From Scleropages formosus (taxonomy: Eukaryota): a stretch of 64,000 bases of DNA. The stretch is taken from the NCBI RefSeq assembly GCF_900964775.1, contig NC_041813.1, forward strand, positions 31,864,960-31,928,959. The letters run 5' to 3'. Of the stretch, positions 9,961 to 36,813 are shown piece after piece. Below the pieces are notes generated by a model. The model did no database searches. It was not told the origin of the DNA and saw nothing but the letters and a program-made list of their open reading frames with translations. Every line of letters starts with the position of its first letter. Position 1 is the first letter of the stretch. The translations under genes were made by a program, and so were the position numbers.

Positions 9961-10129
9961 GGTTTTAAACTACAGAACGCTGCTGCATTTGCTGTTGGAA
10001 TTGGTCTTGAACCGTGTGTCTCAGTTCCTCACACTACATGGAGCCTTTAGTCCCTTGTGAGTGTATGTGGAGCCCTCTTGTGTTCAGAGTGACTTCATAC
10101 CTGCTGATCGCCTTCAGTTGAGCTACAGA

Positions 10130-10345
10130 AAACCTTTCGTTTTACATTTAGTAATTTGACATTTCTCTCCGAAGCAACTTAACGCTGCTAAGCTTTTTAC
10201 AGTGCTTATCCCATTTCCACGGAGGTGTAACTTTTACTGGAACAATTTGGGTAAGTACCTTGATCAGCGGCACTACAGGAGCAAGTGGTATTTGAACCTG
10301 GTTCTTTCAAGTGGAAGGCACCAGCTCTAACCAGTATGCTACTTG
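10130..10345 (-). mobile_element. tRNA-derived SINE (family C), minus orientation
   Basis: The reverse complement reads gtagcatactggttagagctggtgccttccacttgaaagaaccaggttcaaataccac...cccaaattgttccagtaaaag...gcttcggagagaaatgtcaaattactaaatgtaaaa. Same family as 16607, 22295, 29225 and 59215. Confidence 0.65.
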
Positions 10346-11189
10346 TTGATCCTATCATAGATTCGTGAGGCTGCTGGAGGAGCTGTATTACAGTAAGGCG
10401 CTGGCCAGGCAGACCACGAAGGTGGCTGGAGAAGACCGCATGTGTGTAACAGAGGAGCTCAGCTATCAGGTATAAAGACACAGGAACCAACAGGCGCAAT
10501 GAAAATGTTTATTTAAAAATTCGAATGACATCCTAACAAAACAGTCCTAAAACCCAACCTGTGTTCAGTGTTCGTACCCTTGTGTGCTTTTCGACCGGAG
10601 CCAATCAGGGGTCATCGACACACCTCCCCGCGATACAAAGCCAGAGCTCCCAGCTTTGTACGCGTGCTTTTGAAACATATACGTATGCAACATGTTAATC
10701 CTGGAATGACATGATAATCGCATAAATACAAAGGAGCACTGGTAATGTAGGTAAAGGGCTCAAACCAGTCTGAACTTGAAAGTTATTTGACTCAGCGCAA
10801 GGGTATTTACATTTATAGCAAAAATGTTCTGTTGACATGGTACTAAACATTAAATAGAAAAAAGGTGAAAATGACCCATTGTAATAATCAAGTGACAAAT
10901 CATAAAACATTCTCAGGACTCGTCAGCAATTCATGTGATTTAAAAATAAAAAGGGTAGTTGCCAGAAGCCTCTGTGTCAGCTGTGAAATGTACTGTTGTA
11001 TTGGGAAAGGCTGCTTTGTTCTCGGTGAAACGTGGTCTCAGTGGTGACCCTTCCAAGGTATCTCAGGGCATCTTGCTGTGGTTCCAAACGCAACTCCGTT
11101 TGCCACCCTGCAGCCTGTGCGAGAAAAGCCTAAACACACCCCTACACTGTCATGCAGCTCGAGGCCCACCCCCCTCGCTCGCTCTCGTC

Positions 11190-11273
11190 TCAGCAGATGG
11201 AGGCGGGGACGTCGATGAACTGCAAGAGAAGAGTAAAGGGCTTGAAGCCGCAGTGCTGCTGCTGGTGCTGCCG
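11190..11273 (-). CDS. lat: lat terminal coding region (5' boundary uncertain)
   Basis: Phase-0 acceptors at about 11273 (cacctgcag) or about 11219 (ctcttcttgcag). The frame ends ...LLQFIDVPASIC* with stop TGA at 11190-11192. The C-terminus is not conserved with human (YENLQELN). Confidence 0.3.
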   Translation of the reverse strand, partial: RQHQQQHCGFKPFTLLLQFIDVPASIC

Positions 11274-14268
11274 CTGCAGGTGAAGGTTGTGTGGAAAACT
11301 ACGTAAGAGCCAGGAAGAGACTGTGTTGCTTGTGTGAATCATCACATGCTGAACAAAGATCGCAGCTGGGGTGGACAGAGCCGCCTCGAGCCAGGGGTGG
11401 AAAACCACGTGGGAGGCTGCGTTTTGGGGAGGGGCAGGCACGCTGTGGGAACATTGCTTACCACGCTGGTGTTGACGTAGTCGGCGCTGGTGTTGCCCTC
11501 GCTGTCGATGCTTTCGTGCGACATCCCTGGGAGCGGCGGAGAGCAACAGTTAGCGACAGTGAGCCACTGCATCGGCATCCGGTAGCAGAGCGCTGCTATG
11601 CTGACGGATGGGCTGAGCCCTGGTGGGTGGGCACTACTGAACCAGGGAGGGGGCAAAGTTACCTGTCCATGGAAACAGCAACTGAGAGCGACCGGTGTCC
11701 GGACAGTGTCTACAAACTACTTAATGGCTCGTGTGTCTTATTCGTATCGAGCAGTTTCAGCTCTATCAGTTATCGATAACTGCTTGTCCAGGGCAGGAGC
11801 ACAGTGCTCTGTGCACAGCACAGCCTCTCCTGCAAGCACAGGCTGTGTGGCTGAGTGCTCACTAGACAGGATGTTGCTACGTCGCAGGGCAATCTCTCTC
11901 TCTCACACTCGCACACACACGCAGTATAGGTACCTTGGAGGGACCAGTTCACCTGAGAAACATCTTTGGACTGTGGCAGGAAGCGTGAGCACAGGGAAGA
12001 CCTTCGAACTCCACAGGGACTAAACCGCACTGAGACGTGCAGTAGCGGTACCCGCTGAGCCACCGTGCAGTCCATCATCATTCCGTAGAAGCAAACGCGT
12101 CTTAATTGCGCCCGACATTGTAGCATTGCAGCAGTCGAGTGTGCAGAGCAAAGTCCCGTGTTACATTATGTCTTTCCAGCAAATTCAAAAGTGTGAGTTC
12201 GCTCCCCTCCCCCTGCCCAGCTTAGACAACAGTTTCAGAAGCATCTAAATGTGGAAGCTGCACTTAAGTGGCGGGGGGTATTTTGACTGACCTGGTGTTA
12301 AGGCAGGGGCATTGCGGTCTGGCATGTTGATGTAGTTCTCGCTGTTGTTGTCTGCAGACACACAGCACAATCAGTGATGTAATAACAGCGCAAAGCTGGG
12401 CCCCCCCCCATGCCCACTCTGCTTTGTGGACACATGGGGCTGGAGCTCCTCACCGCGTGCCAAAGAATCCAGCGTGAAGCCACCGCTCATCACGCCTAGC
12501 ATGTGGCGCGAGAGTGGAGCCCTTACCAGAGTTGTCATCCTGAACGTTCACGTAGTCCTCGTGACCTGTGGGACAGGCGAATGCAGCAAATGAACGATAA
12601 AACGAGCGTGTCCTGACACGGGTAAAACGGTGTGACGGCACACGTGCACCAGTAGCCTACCTGAGCTCTGCACGGACAGAATGCTGTTTTGCGAGAGACT
12701 GACGGAAACGATGGGCACCGAGTCCGGCAGCACCTCTCTGAGAGGAAACGCACACACACACAGGAGAACAAGTTTTTTTTAATTTTTTTATTTTTGAAAT
12801 GTATATTTAGGTTCTCTTGTGACACTAAGGTGTGTGAACAAGACCAATTTTTTTTACATTTAGAATGAAGTTAATTGTGGTGATGTGTGGCCTGTTTTAG
12901 ATGGACATACAGTCAGATAAAACTTAGTGAACTTTTATGGAACAAAAGTACACAGCACATTTACACTGAAACGCAACATGCTGGAGTCACGTGACCTGTG
13001 GGCGCGCTGTCTCGACACATGCTGACAGTCCTGTCCAGGGGACTCGCTGCATATGAAAGCTCGTTCTTATGGAACGGAGCTCATTTTGAGCCCAGTGTAT
13101 TATGGCCGTTATTAGTATATTTATTCACGGACAGAGGAATGCGGTGTGGACTTTTCATACGAGTCCAAAAACTCACATGTAGTTGTCCGGGTTGTCGTCC
13201 GGGTTGTCGTCCGGGTCTTTGTTCACATAGTCATCTGTGTCAGGTGCACAAAGGAAGAAAAATAATTGGATCATTTTCAGTGTATGTGTTGAGGAATTCT
13301 GAGTCACTGCGCACCCTAACCCTCCACCCCGTTTCCTACAGGCGAACTTTGAACGCCCAACTCCGGGATGGACACGGTACCTTGATCGGAGCCAGGATTC
13401 TCGTAGCTGGGAATACTTTCTCCTGCAGGGAACAAGATCCACGTCAGCGAGCGAGTAAACAGCAGAAAATGAGGGAAAGGGACGGAGAGGACAGAGAGGG
13501 CAGCGAGGCGACGTGCCGGTGACTGACCGTCGTTCGTCGGCGTGAAGGAGGAGTGACGATTCGCCTGCAGTGGAGAGCTGAGACAGATGGTAAAAGCTGT
13601 TAGGACACAGGCTCGAACACTCGTGTAGCGTTTCGGTGTGTGCGCGGCAAAGGCGGGAGGGACCCACGTGGCGTACAGTTGGTTGGAGGACTGTCCAGAC
13701 CCTGAGCTGCGGATGGGCGGCTGGTACATCACCGTGGCTGCGGGACACAAGAGCGGAGAGCGCTGTAACTCTTTGGGTCACATGTACAGCATCACACAAG
13801 CGCCCCCATTATTCACCACCGCTCATGAAAACTGAAGAAGGACGACTTCAGATAGTTACGTGCTGGTCGTACAACCCGGAATCCCGGCGTCGGCTGGTAC
13901 CTGGTGGACAGGGAGAGGGGGGTTATGTGATTTCGGCGGGACCTTTGGCCGACCTTTAGGGGGCCCACTGAGAAACAAGGTGCTGCTTACTGTTCGTTCG
14001 CGTCTCCGTCACGCAGGTTTTGAGGGATGGAAGCTGGACGACGACAACAGCAACAACAACATTATTGAGCACAACGCACGGCGCGTCTCACCATCGGCCC
14101 CCAGTTTGCCCCCCTTCCCCCTCCCTCCCTCTCTCTCTCTCTCTCCCCGGCTCCCTCCTTACTGCGGTTCCAGGGGCCTCCGCAACGGATGCACAGGCCG
14201 GCCAGCATGGCCACAGACACGACGAGCAGGGCTCCGTTCATCAAGGCATTGAGGAGTGCTTCTTCCAT
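11190..14268 (-). CDS. lat: Linker for activation of T cells (LAT orthologue, highly diverged). CDS span, at least 9 coding exons.
   Basis: The ATG exon encodes MEEALLNALMNGALLVVSVAMLAGLCIRC: MEEA start, a single transmembrane helix and a juxtamembrane CxxC palmitoylation site, as in human LAT (MEEAILVPCVLGLLLLPILAMLMALCVHC). It is followed by small phase-consistent exons carrying Grb2/Gads-type YxN motifs: SYENP, DDYVNK, EDYVNV, ENYINM and ADYVNT. It lies directly next to spns1, as in human. Confidence 0.75.
11462..11526 (-). CDS. lat: lat exon with YVNT motif
   Basis: ctcccag|GGATGTCGCACGAAAGCATCGACAGCGAGGGCAACACCAGCGCCGACTACGTCAACACCAGCGTG|gtaagc encodes GMSHESIDSEGNTSADYVNTSV. Confidence 0.65.
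12292..12351 (-). CDS. lat: lat exon with YINM motif
   Basis: tctgcag|ACAACAACAGCGAGAACTACATCAACATGCCAGAC...CCAG|gtcagt encodes DNNSENYINMPDRNAPALTP. Confidence 0.62.
12527..12565 (-). CDS. lat: lat exon with YVNV motif
   Basis: cccacag|GTCACGAGGACTACGTGAACGTTCAGGATGACAACTCTG|gtaagg encodes GHEDYVNVQDDNS. Human LAT has two YVNV sites. Confidence 0.68.
12661..12737 (-). CDS. lat: lat exon
   Basis: ctctcag|AGAGGTGCTGCCGGACTCGG...AGCTCAG|gtaggc encodes IEVLPDSVPIVSVSLSQNSILSVQSS. Phase 2 in, phase 1 out, which bridges the neighbouring exons exactly. Confidence 0.55.
13177..13234 (-). CDS. lat: lat exon with YVNK motif
   Basis: acacag|ATGACTATGTGAACAAAGACCCGGACGACAACCCGGACGACAACCCGGACAACTACAT|gtgagt encodes DDYVNKDPDDNPDDNPDNY. 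It carries a 15-nt tandem acidic repeat. Confidence 0.65.
13381..13720 (-). CDS. lat: lat coding exon 3 (YENP motif). May be split by an internal intron.
   Basis: An open frame from acceptor gtaccag|CCGCCC runs to donor CAAG|gtaccg (phase 0 in, phase 1 out) and ends ...GESIPSYENPGSDQ. The middle part (…SVLSVPFPHFLLF…) looks intron-like. An alternative is a donor at AACGACG|GTCAGT (about 13497) plus an acceptor ccctgcag at 13422. Confidence 0.4.
13860..13900 (-). CDS. lat: lat coding exon 2
   Basis: ccaccag|GTACCAGCCGACGCCGGGATTCCGGGTTGTACGACCAGCAC|gtaact encodes (S)TSRRRDSGLYDQH. Restores phase 0. Confidence 0.45.
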
Positions 14269-30349: not shown

Positions 30350-30530
30350 TTACATTACATCTACATTTTTCTCCAATTCGAGAGCTTCGCACAGCGCCGC
30401 CGCTCCCGTCACGTGACTCGCGGCAGCGGAACGTCGGCTTCCTCCGTCCGCGGACACGCAGGAAGGGGCGGAGCTCCGCGAGGCTTCATTGTTCCGTCCG
30501 TGCATGCGGGCCTCGCCGTAGCGACTCAAA
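30350..30530 (+). promoter_or_regulatory. CpG-rich promoter / 5'UTR of zinc-finger gene A
   Basis: gcgccgccgctcccgtcacgtgactcgcggcagcggaacgtcggcttcc... lies immediately upstream of the ATG. The segment just 5' of the ATG (gtagcgactcaaaATG) is duplicated upstream of gene B (gtagcgactgaaaacATG). Confidence 0.45.
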
Positions 30531-30720
30531 ATGACTAAACTGCAGCTTTTAAACCAGTATCTGACGGAGCGCCTCATGGAGGCCGTGCGCGAGATCCTGG
30601 AGGTGGTGGGAGACATGATTTCCGAGTACCAGGAGGAGACGGCGCGCGCGCAGCGCGAGAACGAGAGTCTCCGCCGGAGGCTGCGGGAGGTCGTGTTCGT
30701 GGCCGAGGCGCCGTGGACCG
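30531..30720 (+). CDS. ZNF gene A exon 1 (N-terminal domain)
   Basis: ATG at 30531. Donor ACCG|gtgagtgagtgagtgag. Confidence 0.85.
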
Positions 30721-32433
30721 GTGAGTGAGTGAGTGAGTGAGTGAGTGAGTGAGTGAATGGGCCGGCGTCCGGTGTCCGTCCGGTGTCCGCTGCGTTACTG
30801 CCTTACTTACTGTCACCTGTCCTGTTAGTGTCGCCACGCGTGTCCTTTTTTTCTTTATTGGCACCTGTTCTTTGTCACACTTCACTTCACTTGTCTTCTA
30901 TTATTGTCAGCTGTCTTAGTGTCACCTGTCTTTTTTGTTGTCCTCTTATTATTGTCACCTGTCATTTATTAGTGTAACTTGTCCTTTCTATTGTCCCTGG
31001 TCTGTCCTTACTCCAGGTGACAGCGTTGTAGCCGTGGTATTCAGTTAGACACTGTAAATCAGTTATTCATACTGGAATTAGAAAAAGTGTGTTAGTAGTG
31101 ATCACTGCGCTGCTTATTTGTAACTTTGTGAAAAGGGGAGCATCTTCATTCCTTGAATGACAGTGAAGTTCATCTTTAACACACTTAGCTTTGGACTGCG
31201 AAATACACTCAGATCAGTAGTCATGTCGTGCGATTGTACACATGGACGCGCACACACACACACACACACACGGGCTCAGGCTGGTGCTCACACTAACATG
31301 TGACACGCAGTGTGGCACAACGGCTGCATGTGTGGCCCGTGATGACTCCCTTCACATGTGAATAATTCACCTTTTGCAGTGTGTGTGAAGCGTGACTCAG
31401 CTGTGTGCCCTGTTGCCCCATAGAAACTCAAGAGCCGGCTGCCCCTCCTGTCCTCGGGGGCAGGTCTCCCGCCAGGCAGGAGGTCCCCGCGCTGGACTGG
31501 GACGCCCGACAGAAAGCGGACGTGGAGACGGCGGCCGGTGACGGGAAGCGGGAGCCCTGCAATCATCCGTGTGCGCTGGACAGGCTCCCGGCGGAGGAGG
31601 CGGCGCAAGAGGCTCCAACGCCGGGACTGAAAAAGCTGGCACTGGAAATAGCCTTGTCCGTCGTTTCGCCGTCGTCGAGCGTCAGCGCCGTTCACTTGGC
31701 CGAGGGCGTGGTCTCCGGGGCCACGCGGTCCGCCGCAGCTGCCGAGCCGGAGCCGCTGCCCGGCCTGAGGCCCGAGCTGGTCAAAAGCGAGCCGGGGGAT
31801 GTGGACCCGAAGCCCGAGCGGCTCTCGGAAGCGCACGCGAATGACGGCGTGCAGGACAACCCCGGTGGCGCTCTGTGTGACGCCGGCGCGAGTGCGGCGT
31901 GTGACACGAAGGGCGCTTTGTTCGAGAGCGTCGAGCAAACCGGTAAACCGGATGAGGCGTGCGGCGACAGCTGCTTGGTGACCTTCGTGGGCGATAAACA
32001 GCACTGCTGTTTCCAGTGTGGCAAGTTCTTCAGCCAGCGCTTCAATCTGAAGACGCACCTGCAGATTCATTCCGGGGAGAGACCGTACAGCTGCAACTGG
32101 TGCGGCAGGTCCTTCACTCAGTCGGCGGACCTGCGGCGCCACCAGCGCATCCACACGGGCGAGAAGCCGCACCGCTGCACCTGGTGCGAGAAGAGCTTCA
32201 CTCAGGTGGGAAACCTGAAGAGACACCTGCGCATCCACACGGGAGAGAGACCCTACTGCTGCAGCCTGTGCGGGAAGTCCTTCAACGACGGGGACACTCT
32301 GAAGAAGCACAAGCGAATCCACACGGGTGAGAGACCGTACTACTGTACGCACTGCTCCAAGACGTTCACGGCGGCGAGCAGTCTGCAGAACCACCTCCGA
32401 AACCACACGAGAGAGAGCAGGCAGCCGCTGTAA
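30531..32433 (+). CDS. C2H2 zinc-finger protein with fish-type N-terminal coiled-coil domain (FiNZ-like). Gene A, 2 coding exons.
   Basis: Exon 1 is 30531-30720 ([63 protein letters not shown]). Its donor lies in a (GTGA)n tract. Exon 2 is 31424-32433, with five tandem C2H2 fingers ([22 protein letters not shown] ... [23 protein letters not shown]) and a TAA stop. The phases fit (G|AA). AATAAA signals at 32528 and 32537. Confidence 0.88.
30721..30758. repeat. (GTGA)9 microsatellite starting at the exon-1 donor of ZNF gene A
   Basis: gtgagtgagtgagtgagtgagtgagtgagtgagtgaatgg. Confidence 0.9.
31424..32433 (+). CDS. ZNF gene A exon 2 (linker plus 5 C2H2 fingers)
   Basis: Acceptor ccccatag|AAACTCAAG. 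The frame stays open to the TAA at 32431. Five C-x2-C-x12-H-x3-H units are joined by TGEKP/TGERP linkers. Confidence 0.88.
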
Positions 32434-32527
32434 GGGGCTGCGTTACCGTACCGTGTTTCCGGTGCGACGAGTCGCTCGATTCGTGCGTACTTGTGTGTGT
32501 GGTATCTTCAGTGCTTGTCTTGGAATA

Positions 32528-32542
32528 ATAAAATGTAATAAA
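32528..32542 (+). terminator. AATAAA polyadenylation signals, ZNF gene A
   Basis: ggaataataaaatgtaataaacac, about 95 nt after the TAA. Confidence 0.5.
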
Positions 32543-34079
32543 CACAATGATGTCATCCAGGTGGGTGAACAGAAGCGGCATCTCCTTACTGCACCATGCA
32601 AAGGTCCAGCTTCAGTTCCTTCCGCTTGCTGTGTAGTGTAAAAAAAAAAAAAGGAAAGAAAAAGCACACATTTACATGCATGTTTTACACAGACAGGTAA
32701 AAACTGTCAGGCCCAGGGGAAACTGCACACGGCTACAGCACTGTAAAGTACAGCAGCACGGTGACGGGGACACAAATAAGCGGAGAAAGTAACAAGTATT
32801 GCAGACAGTGCTGAAAGTTCCATAAAATGCATGGGGTGCGTTGAACAGTTGCGCAAGTCGTGGCTCGGCACCGCTCGGGTTTGCCTTCTGCTCTTTCTCC
32901 GATTTTCAAGCCGAAAGGAAGGCCAGTGAACGCGTCGCGTCGCCCCGGGGGCAGTCGGCGGGCCTGGGCTCAGATCCAACCCACCGCTGTGGCGTCTGTC
33001 TCTCGTGGGCCAGCGTGAGCACGCGTCCCTCGCCATCCTTGGCACGTAACTGCTGTGCCACCTTCCCTAAAGGAAGGAGACCCCTGCTGCGCTGGTCGTC
33101 ACCTGCCGTTGGGATTTCGTCCCTTCTCGCGCCCGAAGAAACGCCCATCTTTCCCGAACACACTTGAGCTCCGGGCACGAATAAGGTGCTCCGCTTTTCT
33201 TTGTAGATGATCGCTGTGTTTCCTGTCCCTCTGCTCCAATAAACACACTCTTAAAACACCGCCTGCACGACTTGTTGTACAGCCGTCATCCCGGCTTCGG
33301 ACACGTCGGTATTTTATTGCCGGCAGCCCGTCTTCAGTCAAGGTACTGTTGAGAGAGAGCGGTAAGAAAAGCGACCGAGCTTTGAAGGGAGACCGGAGAG
33401 ACGGTTCACCTCCTTTAGAGAAAGACTCGAATGGAAAACGTTCACTTTTAATCCCAAGTTCAGGCCACTGTACTTAACTCCACCGAAGGCCTCAATTTGA
33501 GCAGGCCTCGACCCCACTCCCTAAAGGACACTCTCACATTACACTTAATTCTCCAACGTAAGGTGCGGAGGGGCCACTTTTGTGCATTACACGAATATCC
33601 TGAAATCTTAGGCTATTGAAAAGGCCGTTTCTAGGATCACTTGGAACTACTGACGTAGAAACGAGCTCGGACATCTTTACCGTAATACCTAGGGTACGGG
33701 ACCCACATGAACTTCGTCAAGCTTACTTCAGTAGTAGAGTGTGTGATGCAGTGTTGGGATTAGTACACCTTTGGAAGTATTTTGTGGAATGACAAGTAAA
33801 ACCCTTAACGGCGAATATTTAACAAGTAAGTATGACAATCTCTAGCGAGCACAGCGGTGACGGACAGGGAGTTTTATCCCGAAAGCTGGACGTTCAAGCA
33901 GCAATTTACTCTCTCGGATTTGCTCATCAATAATACCCAGCAATCCCCAAGTGTAACACTGAAATGGTGCGAGCCGTTCTGGATAAAAGCCGGCTGAACG
34001 AAGAATTTAAACACTGTTGTCGTATATAGTCAAGAAGAAAGTGTCGCCGATTCTCTGTTGATTACGGCAATCGTCAGTC

Positions 34080-34195
34080 GCGAGCTCTCCGTTGGACAGT
34101 CGCGCCACAAGGAAGCGGTAGTGCGGGCGCGCGCGCGCCAATGGGCTGAGCCCCCTTCTTCCTACGAGCTCCTGCATGAAGTAGCGACTGAAAAC
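34080..34195 (+). promoter_or_regulatory. CpG-rich promoter / 5'UTR of zinc-finger gene B
   Basis: gcgggcgcgcgcgcgccaatgggctgagcc. Contains a CCAAT box. Confidence 0.4.
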
Positions 34196-34376
34196 ATGAA
34201 GAAATTGCAGCTTTTGAACGAATACCTGACGGAACGGCTCATGGTGACCGTGCGGGACATACTGGAGGTGGTGGGAGCCACGGTTATGGAGTATCGAGAG
34301 GAAACGGCCCGGACGCACCGGGAGAACGAGCTCCTGAGGCGGAGGCTGAGGGAAGCTGGACTGCGGGAGCCCGGCG
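34196..34376 (+). CDS. ZNF gene B exon 1
   Basis: ATG at 34196. Donor CCCGGCG|gtgagtgtgagtgtgagtgtgag. Confidence 0.85.
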
Positions 34377-34391
34377 GTGAGTGTGAGTGTG

Positions 34392-34429
<38 letters not shown>

Positions 34430-34713
34430 CGCGCGCGCGCGCGCGCTCGTCCTGCAGCACGAGCCCGACGGAGCACCGAACCGCCCGGGCCGTGACTCCT
34501 CTTGTGTGACCGTAGCGTAGTAGTTGCACGGTTTCGCGCGCGGCGTCCCGTGGCTCCCCCCCATGACCCGATCCACGCACGCCGGGACCGGCGTTATCAT
34601 CATGTGTCCGATGGGAAGAAAGTTACTCGTAGGGACGCAGAGCCCTTCGCAGGGGGTCTGTCTATGTTGAGTAGGCGTGTGGGCGGTTCCGCTGAGCGAT
34701 GATGAGCCCGTGT

Positions 34714-34750
<37 letters not shown>

Positions 34751-36148
34751 CAGTTCAACACTGTACCGCGGTTGCATCCCAAGGTCACTGCCAGTCTGAG
34801 TTCTACATAAGCCTTATGATAAGGAAGTGATGTCTGCGCCCGATGTTTCGTAGTCTAGCTGCTTTTAAACGATTTAAATAATAAACTTGTCGTGGCCCTT
34901 CGTTGACACAGGAAGAGTACAGGGTTAGTGGTGTGGAGAGCTGTGTTCTCGGTGACACTTCTCAGTGCGAGGCGACATCTTTAATGCCGGTCTCACTTTG
35001 CCAACACTTCAGTTGTATCTGAACACCAGACTCCAAAAGTCATTTCACTGATTGCTGCCTTCACTGATGAACTTGTCACCCACCTTTACATTTGTGGTGG
35101 TGGTGTGTGAGATGTTAGCAGTTCGGAAAGCGGCGCAGACAGCAGACGGCTTTGCGCGAGCATCACCTGTGTCCTCTGTTCCTATTCAGAAGCGGACCAG
35201 TCCATCTTGCCCCCTGTCCCTGGCACAGGGTCCCCCACGAGACGGGAGGCTGCCGGGCTGGATTGGAACTCCCTGCGGGAACAGGACACCGAGACGACAC
35301 CTGTCGATGGAAAGCGAGACCTGCACGGTCACGTTATTCCTCTTGGAGTGACAACGAGGCGAGATTCACGAGAGCTGCCCGAGTCTGACTGGACAGCGGG
35401 ACGCAGAAAGCTGACTTCTGGTGGTCCGGGATTCAGACCTGCCTGCCGTAAAAATGACCAAGGTCAGGATGCTGTTGAGCTCTCGGATCTTTTTAAGATA
35501 AAAATCATGAGTCCTGCAGAAGTGGACTCTCAGCCTAATGTGGAGTCAGGCCCGTTTAAAACGGAACCGAACGGAACGAACTTGAGTGGCGCCGATGAGT
35601 CTGGCAACCTGAGAAGCGCCGAAGAGCCGAACGTCAGCGAGGTCGTAGGTGAATGTACGTCGTGGACTGAAACCCAGTCGACTCGGGGCCGTCTGAGGCA
35701 GGTCAGGGCGAAGAGGTCGCACTCCTGCCCGCAGTGCGGGAAGACGTTCAGTCACGTGTCGCGCCTGAAGATACATTTACGCATTCACACGGGAGAAAAA
35801 CCGTACAGCTGCACGCAGTGTGGGAAGTGTTTCAACAATGACGGCACACTCAAAAACCATCAGAGGGTTCACACAGAAGTGAGGCTGTTCAGCTGCGTCC
35901 AGTGCGGCATGAGTTTTAAGGACGCATATACCTGTAAGAAACACCAGAGAGTGCACACGGGGGCCCGGCTGTACTGCTGCTCCCTTTGCGGAGAGCAGTT
36001 GAATGATGCAGTCTGTCTGCAACATCACATTAGAACACACACTGAAGACACACCGTATTCCTGCACCTTGTGCGGAAAACATTTCACTGATGTCAGCAAA
36101 CTCAATAAGCACTTCAGGAGTCATGCAAGAGAGGACACTTACAGCTGA
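34196..36148 (+). CDS. C2H2 zinc-finger protein, tandem paralogue of gene A (FiNZ-like). Gene B, 2 coding exons.
   Basis: Exon 1 is 34196-34376 (MKKLQLLNEYLTERLMVTVRDILEVVGATVMEYREETARTHRENELLRRRLREAGLREPG). Its donor lies in a (GTGAGT)4(GT)n tract. Exon 2 is 35190-36148, with five C2H2 fingers (HSCPQCGKTFSHVSRLKIHLRIH ... YSCTLCGKHFTDVSKLNKHFRSH) and a TGA stop. The splice phase is the same G|AA as in gene A. AATAAA at about 36814. Confidence 0.88.
34377..34445. repeat. (GTGAGT)4-(GT)n-(GC)n compound repeat starting at the exon-1 donor of ZNF gene B
   Basis: gtgagtgtgagtgtgagtgtgagtgtgtgtgtgtgtgtgtgtgtgtgcgtgcgcgcgcgcgcgcgc. Confidence 0.9.
35190..36148 (+). CDS. ZNF gene B exon 2
   Basis: Acceptor cctattcag|AAGCGGACC. 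The frame is open to the TGA at 36146. Confidence 0.88.
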
Positions 36149-36813
36149 ATACCCTGAAAATCAGTCTGGAGCACACTCTCAGCTTCATAACAAGAATAGT
36201 AATAAGAATGAGCTTAGTCATCCTTCATACCAGATACCTAAGTTTAGTACGCTGATTGCTCACAAAGATACATTTATTTTTATTCTTAAAAAGGCTTTAT
36301 TAATAATCATTTTTATAGTTGGAAAGAAGATGTCACATCCTGCAAGCGTTCTCTGTAAAGTCTTGCGGAACACACACGTACTCTACTTAAGGCGAAAAGG
36401 GGTGTAAGGCAAGTGCTGTTGTCATTTTTAAATCTTCAAACTACTCTGAATCAAACACACACTAACCTTTTACAGACTTTATTTTGTAATGATTATTAGC
36501 ACCTGAATGTCTGATGAAAAGTCCAGTTTTGCTAATTATGAGGATAATTCGGATGCTGACAGTACTTGTAATTTATGTTGACGTTGATTTTTCAGATGTG
36601 TGACACTTAAATGTAGGTGGTCAAAAGGGAACTAATTATTACTTGTCAAAATTGTTGTTTTTGGCGAGGCAGGATGGGAATGTGTGGCAGCATTTGAAAA
36701 AATGTGATTTGGAAAATAGCTCCTTCTGTTTTCGAGGACAACTTATGTAAAAAAAATTTTCACATTAAATATGATTGGAATGTTGCTTGGAAGTAAGCTG
36801 CTGAATACCATTT

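Follow-up and report, generated by a model that had tools for sequence, protein, structure and literature searches.

Two zinc-finger genes of the arowana Scleropages formosus as probable members of an old teleost tandem array

Gene structure and database identity

The subject of this analysis is a stretch of 64,000 nucleotides (nt) from the Asian arowana Scleropages formosus (RefSeq assembly GCF_900964775.1, contig NC_041813.1, positions 31,864,960 to 31,928,959 of the forward strand; hereafter the window), which holds two C2H2 zinc-finger genes that we term g1 (30531-32433) and g2 (34196-36148). Both genes lie head to tail on the plus strand and have two exons each in the same layout. An earlier note on this DNA, made from the letters alone, had described them as head-to-tail, two-exon paralogues of shared architecture, and its gene models proved exact: by exact-sequence look-up, the spliced g1 product of 399 amino acids (aa) equals XP_029109773.1 ('zinc finger protein 696-like') in every letter, and the spliced g2 product (379 aa) equals XP_018619783.1 ('zinc finger protein 501'), both RefSeq proteins of Scleropages formosus. 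The two genes are already known, as the RefSeq annotation has the same exon structure as the one proposed. The window is 99.6-99.9% identical to a Scleropages formosus contig of another assembly. The features of the pair, in positions of the window, are as follows.

30531..30720, plus strand: g1 exon 1, coding part, from Met1 to the first base of codon 64; encodes the N-terminal helix (residues 2-58)
30721..31423, plus strand: g1 intron; begins with a (GTGA)9 microsatellite (30721-30756) and holds a (CA)n run at about 31245-31272
31424..32433, plus strand: g1 exon 2, coding part and stop codon; disordered linker (residues 61-253), then five C2H2 fingers
32008..32406, plus strand: five-finger C2H2 array of g1 (Pfam zf-C2H2 1.7e-26, five stretches; beta-beta-alpha in AlphaFold)
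32527..32542, plus strand: two AATAAA hexamers about 100 nt past the g1 stop codon, read from the sequence; putative polyadenylation signal
34196..34376, plus strand: g2 exon 1, coding part, from Met1 to the first base of codon 61; encodes the paralogous N-terminal helix
34377..35189, plus strand: g2 intron; begins with (GTGAGT)8 running into (GT)n (34377-34429) and holds (AC)17 at 34715-34748
35190..36148, plus strand: g2 exon 2, coding part and stop codon; linker with FKTEP (35555-35569), then five C2H2 fingers
35726..36124, plus strand: five-finger C2H2 array of g2 (Pfam zf-C2H2 3.6e-20, five stretches)

Exon 1 of g1 ends in a phase-1 donor (G/GTGAGT, intron start 30721) and joins the acceptor ccccatAG, with the stop codon at 32431-32433; exon 1 of g2 likewise ends in phase 1 at G/GTGAGT and joins ctattcAG. 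The position and phase of this donor are constant in all orthologues and paralogues read; among 11 exon-1 copies it stands immediately 3' of W-x-G residues in nine, and the helix and the fingers are also joined in RefSeq models from salmon and Anguilla. An exon for the N-terminal domain followed by a single finger exon, as present in g1 and g2, is a layout common to many zinc-finger families and does not discriminate among them.

Both exon-1 donors also form the opening repeat of a microsatellite, (GTGA)9 in g1 and (GTGAGT)8 passing into (GT)n in g2. Because a GT recurs in phase at every third GTGA unit of g1 and at each GTGAGT unit of g2, length variation in these tracts could make alternative 5' splice sites. 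A GenBank entry from an older arowana assembly, KPP68194.1 (395 aa; window 30531-35650), is a chimeric model that spans both genes: it consists of g1 exon 1, part of g1 exon 2, which it exits at an internal GT after ...SVEQT, and g2 exon 2, which it exits after ...SEVV. This model contains zero fingers and confirms the junction between exons 1 and 2 of g1; otherwise, it is probably an annotation artefact or a read-through transcript.

Fingers and linkers

Pfam placed only C2H2 families above threshold on g1 and g2 and counted five fingers in each protein, in agreement with the earlier reading of exon 2. In both proteins the fingers are of the Krueppel type (C-x2-C-x12-H-x3-H), arranged in tandem with TGEKP-like linkers; the finger linkers are canonical in four of four cases in g1 and in one of four in g2, where the others read TEVRLFS, TGARLYC and TEDTPYS. 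The AlphaFold model of full-length g1 consists of a helix at residues 2-58 (predicted local distance difference test score, pLDDT, of 92-97), a stretch scoring below 50 at residues 61-253 and five beta-beta-alpha fingers at about 80-89. The disordered linker between helix and fingers is about 190 residues long, and in both genes it carries a Psi-K-x-E-P motif (VKSEP at 31780-31794 in g1, FKTEP at 35555-35569 in g2), which we take to be a SUMO consensus of the kind often tied to repression.

For the comparison across species, orthologues of g1 and g2 are called B and C, respectively, after their places in a tandem array that in some fishes also includes a gene A. Two short islands of conservation stand out inside the fast-evolving disordered linker: a 17-residue motif kept in all B orthologues (g1: 31624-31674), with a short helix predicted at residues 134-140 at low confidence, and the motif DLFKIxI(V/M) kept in C and A orthologues (g2: 35480-35510).

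Recognition residues and selection

The recognition helices of each gene, read from position -1 to position 6, form a signature that recurs in its orthologues. For B this signature is QxxNLKT, QSADLRR, QxGNLKR, DGDTLKK and xASSLQN, and it was found in a mormyrid, Megalops, Aldrovandia, Synaphobranchus, Albula and Gymnothorax, with its 3' part in Salmo; the third helix is QVGNLKR in Gymnothorax, and the fifth is VASSLQN or a one-residue variant of it. The recognition helices of g2 are HVSRLKI, NDGTLKN, DAYTCKK, DAVCLQH and DVSKLNK, and the C signature of fingers 1-3 (HxSRLKI, NDGTLKN, DAYTCKK) is present in Megalops, Synaphobranchus, Gymnothorax and salmonids. At the specificity positions -1, 2, 3 and 6, members of B are identical at 18-20 of 20 sites and members of C at 14-19 of 20 (12-13 of 16 in comparisons with salmon), while B and C of the same species share only 0-2 of 20. 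Between g1 and g2 the number shared is two, so that the earlier claim of diverged contact residues between the paralogues stands.

Pairwise Nei-Gojobori estimates for the fingers gave nonsynonymous divergence (dN) of 0.012-0.062 within B and 0.076-0.23 within C, with synonymous divergence (dS) ranging from 0.6 to saturation. The ratio of the two (omega) was 0.01-0.05 in the fingers wherever it was computable and about 0.25-0.5 in the linker, which evolves faster than the fingers. Made over the finger region as a whole, a dN/dS check of the kind that the earlier note had proposed gave no sign of racing fingers. Judged from these alignments, the divergence of the paralogues in their contact residues is ancient and has been frozen since, the opposite of an arms-race signature.

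Orthologues and age of the pair

A search with the linker and fingers of g1 returned full-length orthologues only in Megalops cyprinoides, Paramormyrops and Gymnothorax. Tetrapod matches in the same search covered the fingers only, at about 50% identity and 52-54% coverage. No tetrapod or human orthologue was seen in this search, which was saturated by generic poly-zinc-finger proteins; the earlier statement that no human 16p11.2 gene corresponds to the pair is upheld to that extent, while its corollary of a lineage-specific insertion is not.

In the tarpon Megalops atlanticus the genes lie in the order A, B, C and an extra, recent copy of C. B is followed by C in Synaphobranchus and in Gymnothorax, in Salmo (Atlantic salmon) C comes straight after the 3' end of B, and the Aldrovandia locus holds A and then B only. 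A mormyrid contig (Logan assembly of a public sequencing run) carries B, whose protein matches that of Paramormyrops, followed by an exon 1 most like that of g2. The adjacency of B and C is therefore seen in five lineages: Scleropages, Megalops, Synaphobranchus, Gymnothorax and Salmo. As the same two genes stand side by side across these lineages, the duplication is older than the split between osteoglossomorphs, elopomorphs and salmonids, and the comparisons assign g1 and g2 to places B and C in an old tandem array, one that already existed when living teleosts last had a common ancestor.

What is left of the duplication in the DNA is limited to exon 1 and the finger repeats. Exon 1 of g1 and exon 1 of g2 are 77% identical over 161 nt (z = 46 against shuffles), and the similarity of this repeat family sets in 3 nt ahead of the ATG. 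Between the 400-nt stretches upstream of the start codons no similarity was detectable, their score of 25 lying below the highest shuffle score of 27; a (CA)n run is all that the introns have in common, and no similarity is left in the 3' flanks. Of the earlier claim that exon 1 and the promoter-proximal DNA are recognisably duplicated, the first half is borne out and the second is not. The age that had been proposed also has to be revised: with orthologues of both genes across teleosts, B next to C in five lineages, and introns and flanks that have only a (CA)n run in common, the pair is not young.

The extra C copy of tarpon (9974-12264 of the Megalops atlanticus locus) has the helices HVSRLKI, HDATLKN, DVYTCKK, EVGNLQT and ESSKLKK; in exon 1 it departs from tarpon C at only two residues. 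Deposited models of array members in Megalops, Aldrovandia and Synaphobranchus are 'hypothetical proteins' of 104-185 aa that stop before the fingers, although five intact fingers can be read in the genomic frame of every one of these genes. A 713-aa model from Synaphobranchus seems to be a fusion of two adjacent genes.

The N-terminal helix

The N-terminal domain, which the earlier note had described as helical and roughly 60 aa long, is an amphipathic helix of about 58 residues, encoded by an exon of its own and rich in both Arg and Glu. AlphaFold modelled the N-terminal 63 residues, given with 17 homologues, as one unbroken helix from residue 3 to residue 59 (mean pLDDT 92). Across the 294 unique copies analysed, the best-fitting heptad register places 'a' at residue 16, with a hydrophobic occupancy of 0.68 at the a/d positions, against 0.57 or less in other registers. 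The core in this register consists of V19, L23, V26, V30, Y33, N44, L47, L51 and L54, each kept in more than 80% of copies except L54, a position that is hydrophobic but is Leu in under half of them. Such an arrangement, with Asn at 'a' and Leu at the d, a and d positions that come next, characterises dimeric leucine zippers.

We define the helix family by a profile match at the extreme N-terminus, encoded on an exon of its own that ends in a phase-1 donor, as found in both g1 and g2; its consensus includes MSKIERLNARVAKLL. A homology search of the kind called for earlier yielded, besides the B and C orthologues, a very large set: a profile search over 1.84 billion cluster representatives returned 1304 clusters (50% identity) at E<=1e-3, 363 of them at E<=1e-10. 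The domain begins at most five residues from Met1 in 129 of 175 readable sequences, and fingers are present in 65 of the 91 family proteins of at least 250 aa, three to five fingers being commonest. A search with a profile of 26 sequences returned mostly exon-1-only fragments on short contigs, few of them named.

All named members of the family, from roughly 25 species, are teleosts, in keeping with the earlier claim that the domain is restricted to fish. They come from Scleropages, Arapaima, Paramormyrops, Brienomyrus, Megalops, Albula, Aldrovandia, Synaphobranchus, Conger, Gymnothorax, Anguilla, Engraulis, Metynnis, Electrophorus, Labeo, Myxocyprinus, Aplochiton, Coregonus, Oncorhynchus, Salmo, Amphiprion, Perca, Sander, Epinephelus, Mugilogobius and Dissostichus; the groups represented include Osteoglossomorpha, Elopomorpha, Characiformes, Gymnotiformes, Cypriniformes, salmonids and percomorphs. 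In the searchable literature we found no description of an N-terminal coiled coil of teleost zinc-finger proteins or of this helix domain. From these matches, the helix appears to be a separate large family of at least 1304 clusters, absent from Pfam and curated libraries and apparently confined to teleosts.

The helix is also fused to other tails, among them BEN and possibly further DNA-binding ones. One Albula protein with the helix is labelled as BEN-domain-containing in UniRef, and some mormyrid helix proteins end in a Cys-rich C...C...C..C..H tail that may resemble piggyBac-derived proteins. In the databases, a 79-aa exon-1 fragment of Dissostichus bears the name 'TSC22 domain family protein 1', it seems because of sub-threshold similarity to TSC22, and names of RefSeq orthologues such as 'zinc finger and SCAN domain-containing protein 2-like' reflect similarity of the fingers only.

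Comparison with named domain families

Several Pfam families (TSC22, XRCC4_CC, YabA, Taxilin and others) match the helix below threshold as coiled coils, and these matches were treated as noise. The helix resembles TSC-22 and bZIP-type zippers in its heptads, with the conserved Asn at 'a' and then Leu at d, a and d, but it scores only 17.2-19.6 bits against the Pfam cut-off of 30 for the TSC-22/dip/bun family and lacks both the basic region and the TSC box, so that membership was rejected; the likeness to TSC22 is generic coiled-coil noise, and many unrelated coiled-coil families score similarly. PF27578 (PF27578.1), listed in precomputed Pfam annotations for two family members and so for just 2 of 107 matches, is unlikely to be the model of this family.

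The earlier note had left room for the domain to be a variant of KRAB or SCAN. No Pfam match to KRAB (PF01352), SCAN (PF02023) or BTB (PF00651) was obtained for g1 or g2 even at E<=1, nor for KRAB with the N-terminal 111 residues. Identity as a KRAB zinc-finger protein was rejected on this lack of a match and on the predicted fold of one long helix, and SCAN and BTB were rejected likewise, the fold being a single long helix and neither a helical bundle nor an alpha/beta BTB fold.

The same note had likened the domain to the FiNZ type. FiNZ is a Glu-rich N-terminal sequence of 28 aa found only in cyprinids; zebrafish carries about 700 copies, of which many evolve under positive selection (Wells et al. 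2023, PMC10547256); its genes evolve rapidly and are expressed at genome activation (PMC10547256). At the published FiNZ residues V11, I13, E15, F21, Q29, T32 and D33 (Carotti et al. 2024 supplement, PMC11603059), g1 has L, E, L, E, M, E and Y and g2 has L, E, L, D, T, E and Y, with none of the seven matching in either protein. Like FiNZ genes, g1 and g2 are C2H2 genes of fish with a short N-terminal domain on its own exon, a single finger exon and no Pfam family for the domain. Unlike FiNZ genes, they have five fingers under strong purifying selection and a helix of about 58 residues rich in Arg as well as Glu, and the rapid turnover and positive selection on fingers that mark FiNZ are not seen in them. 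We rejected the FiNZ identity on the seven mismatched residues, on the length of the unit (about 58 residues against 28) and on the host, an osteoglossomorph, against a cyprinid-only family. Because cypriniforms carry the helix family too, it coexists with FiNZ and is not FiNZ.

Carotti et al. described a second zinc-finger family, termed 'KRAB-like', whose N-terminal domain is widespread in ray-finned fish and which includes Scleropages formosus members (PMC9101882, PMC11603059). Proteins of this family are reported to co-immunoprecipitate with TRIM33, and the family is reported in gar, bichir and sturgeon, with Megalops and Anguilla members also listed (Carotti et al. 2022, 2024; PMC9101882, PMC11603059). 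Its published residues A25, L27, Q29, L37, E45, L48 and K49 (PMC11603059 supplement) fit g1 and g2 neither at the published numbering nor, by eye, at other offsets, a comparison that covers seven positions from a garbled supplement table. The two groups are alike in being zinc-finger proteins of ray-finned fish with a conserved non-KRAB N-terminal domain; they differ at the published positions and in that the 'KRAB-like' family reaches gar, bichir and sturgeon, while the named helix matches are all teleost.

Genomic neighbourhood

Three further protein-coding genes frame the pair in the window.

~21.9-24.6 kb, minus strand: SPNS1; best solved-structure match human spinster homolog 1 (9.5e-58, against 1.4e-42 for SPNS2)
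~25.6-27 kb, plus strand: PRRT2-like CD225 gene, upstream of g1
~40.4-46 kb, minus strand: DOC2A, downstream of g2; best match DOC2A C2A (2.1e-54)

Between the PRRT2-like gene and DOC2A, the arowana window has the two zinc-finger genes alone, with neither gene A nor an extra C copy in this interval. A DOC2A-like gene on the minus strand stands 3' of the array in both the window and Megalops. When 10-kb flanks of the other loci were searched for PRRT2 and DOC2A, DOC2A was reached only in the downstream flank of Megalops. Since the array adjoins DOC2A in tarpon too, it is an old resident of this block, and the earlier picture of a pair inserted into an otherwise conserved block loses its footing. 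We take the human counterparts of SPNS1, the PRRT2-like gene and DOC2A to lie at 16p11.2, presumably with about ten genes between PRRT2 and DOC2A and with SPNS1 about 1 Mb away. As this spacing differs, the block is conserved in gene content and not in order. An Rfam scan of the whole 64,000-nt window on both strands found no family at the gathering score.

Discussion

We consider it highly probable that g1 and g2 form an ancient, conserved pair of genes for sequence-specific transcription factors, each built of helix, linker and five fingers and each with its own fixed recognition code. Because the recognition residues of each gene are kept under strong purifying selection, the two proteins would most likely be conventional sequence-specific transcription factors, each with a stable target motif different from that of the other. 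In tetrapods, SCAN and BTB serve C2H2 proteins as N-terminal protein-protein interaction modules for self-association or hetero-association. The proteins of g1 and g2 resemble SCAN and BTB zinc-finger proteins in having an N-terminal module, a disordered linker and a C2H2 array of short to medium length, and the conserved heptad core with its Asn at 'a' suggests that the helix, too, may drive homo- or hetero-oligomerisation through a coiled coil. On this last step our judgement is evenly balanced.

Several observations pull the other way and have to be set against these proposals. The AlphaFold runs were of single chains, from which a coiled coil could not emerge. With polar Thr at the a/d positions 37 and 40, the core is imperfect, and the helix could dock onto another protein instead. 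The omega values are rough, and some are not computable, because dS is saturated in most comparisons. In Scleropages, fingers 4-5 and three linkers of g2 have drifted, and 14 of its 20 specificity residues are kept. The apparent restriction to teleosts describes the named matches from about 25 species, and the proteomes of gar, bowfin, sturgeon and bichir lie outside it.

The drift of g2 raises the possibility that this gene is losing its function in the arowana lineage, with its last two fingers and its linkers decaying and g1 alone working. The linkers TEVRLFS, TGARLYC and TEDTPYS in place of TGEKPY are consistent with such decay, as are the Leu at the conserved aromatic position of finger 4 (CGEQL), the helices DAVCLQH and DVSKLNK in fingers 4-5 where the elopomorph consensus has EVGNLQT and ESGKLKK, and a finger dN against orthologues of 0.15-0.18, compared with 0.076 between two elopomorphs. 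Yet the reading frame, the splice sites and all Cys and His ligands of g2 are intact, and the helices of fingers 1-3 are identical to those of its orthologues. The odd linker between fingers 2 and 3 (T-x-V-R-L/M-Y) is common to all C orthologues and is therefore an ancestral oddity, and salmonids have remodelled the same end of the protein and still keep the gene. We regard loss of function in g2, and with it a reading of g2 as a pseudogene, as improbable. Another possibility concerns the helix: that it works chiefly as an effector that recruits a co-repressor such as TRIM33 and not in self-association, and that the genes may belong to the 'KRAB-like' set. The Psi-K-x-E-P motifs in the linkers, a SUMO consensus often tied to repression, would suit this role, as would the binding of partners by TRIM proteins through coiled coils and the Scleropages formosus members and TRIM33 co-immunoprecipitation of the Carotti family (PMC9101882, PMC11603059). 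What makes the effector role unlikely in our estimation is that the seven published 'KRAB-like' residues misfit g1 and g2, that our eel helix protein is not among the eel accessions listed for that family, that the family occurs in gar, bichir and sturgeon while named helix matches are all from teleosts, and that the Pfam KRAB model finds no match even at E<=1.

The earlier proposal of a young, lineage-specific pair of the FiNZ type that diversifies its fingers to repress transposable elements has some features on its side: a domain exon followed by a finger exon, an arrangement known from FiNZ and KRAB zinc-finger genes (PMC10547256), a difference between the paralogues at 18 of 20 specificity residues, and no tetrapod orthologue seen in our search. 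These features do not outweigh a helix of about 58 residues that spans Osteoglossomorpha, Elopomorpha, Otophysi, salmonids and percomorphs, where FiNZ has 28 aa, occurs only in cyprinids and matches at none of the seven residues. Nor does the proposal sit well with orthologues of both genes across teleosts that have near-identical recognition helices, with a finger omega of 0.01-0.05, with only five fingers per protein or with copies that retain no non-coding similarity to each other. In our view, it is already refuted on the points of family and age, and we give it almost no credence. Recognition residues fixed within orthologue groups together with low omega in the fingers argue against a transposon arms race, and nothing in this analysis supports a role of g1 and g2 in transposon control.

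The finding as first posed thus falls, and g1 and g2, already in RefSeq, look like conserved, housekeeping-style transcription factors and not like a fresh expansion. The mildly new element is that their helix appears to belong to a very large teleost family held by no curated library: a very common N-terminal helix of teleost zinc-finger proteins, without a Pfam family, that databases mislabel as TSC22, SCAN-like or 'hypothetical'. A curated model of the helix would clean up thousands of annotations and would draw a line between it and both FiNZ and the 'KRAB-like' family. Beside DOC2A, B and C are a rare instance of small zinc-finger genes with a recognition code fixed since the teleost ancestor, which makes both genes good candidates for finding a conserved regulatory motif. 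We suggest, tentatively and with some doubt, that the helix is an undescribed zinc-finger-associated domain that lets family members pair combinatorially, in which case a heterodimer of B and C might read a composite ten-finger site. If true, the helix would serve fish zinc-finger proteins as SCAN or BTB serve those of tetrapods, enabling combinatorial pairing.

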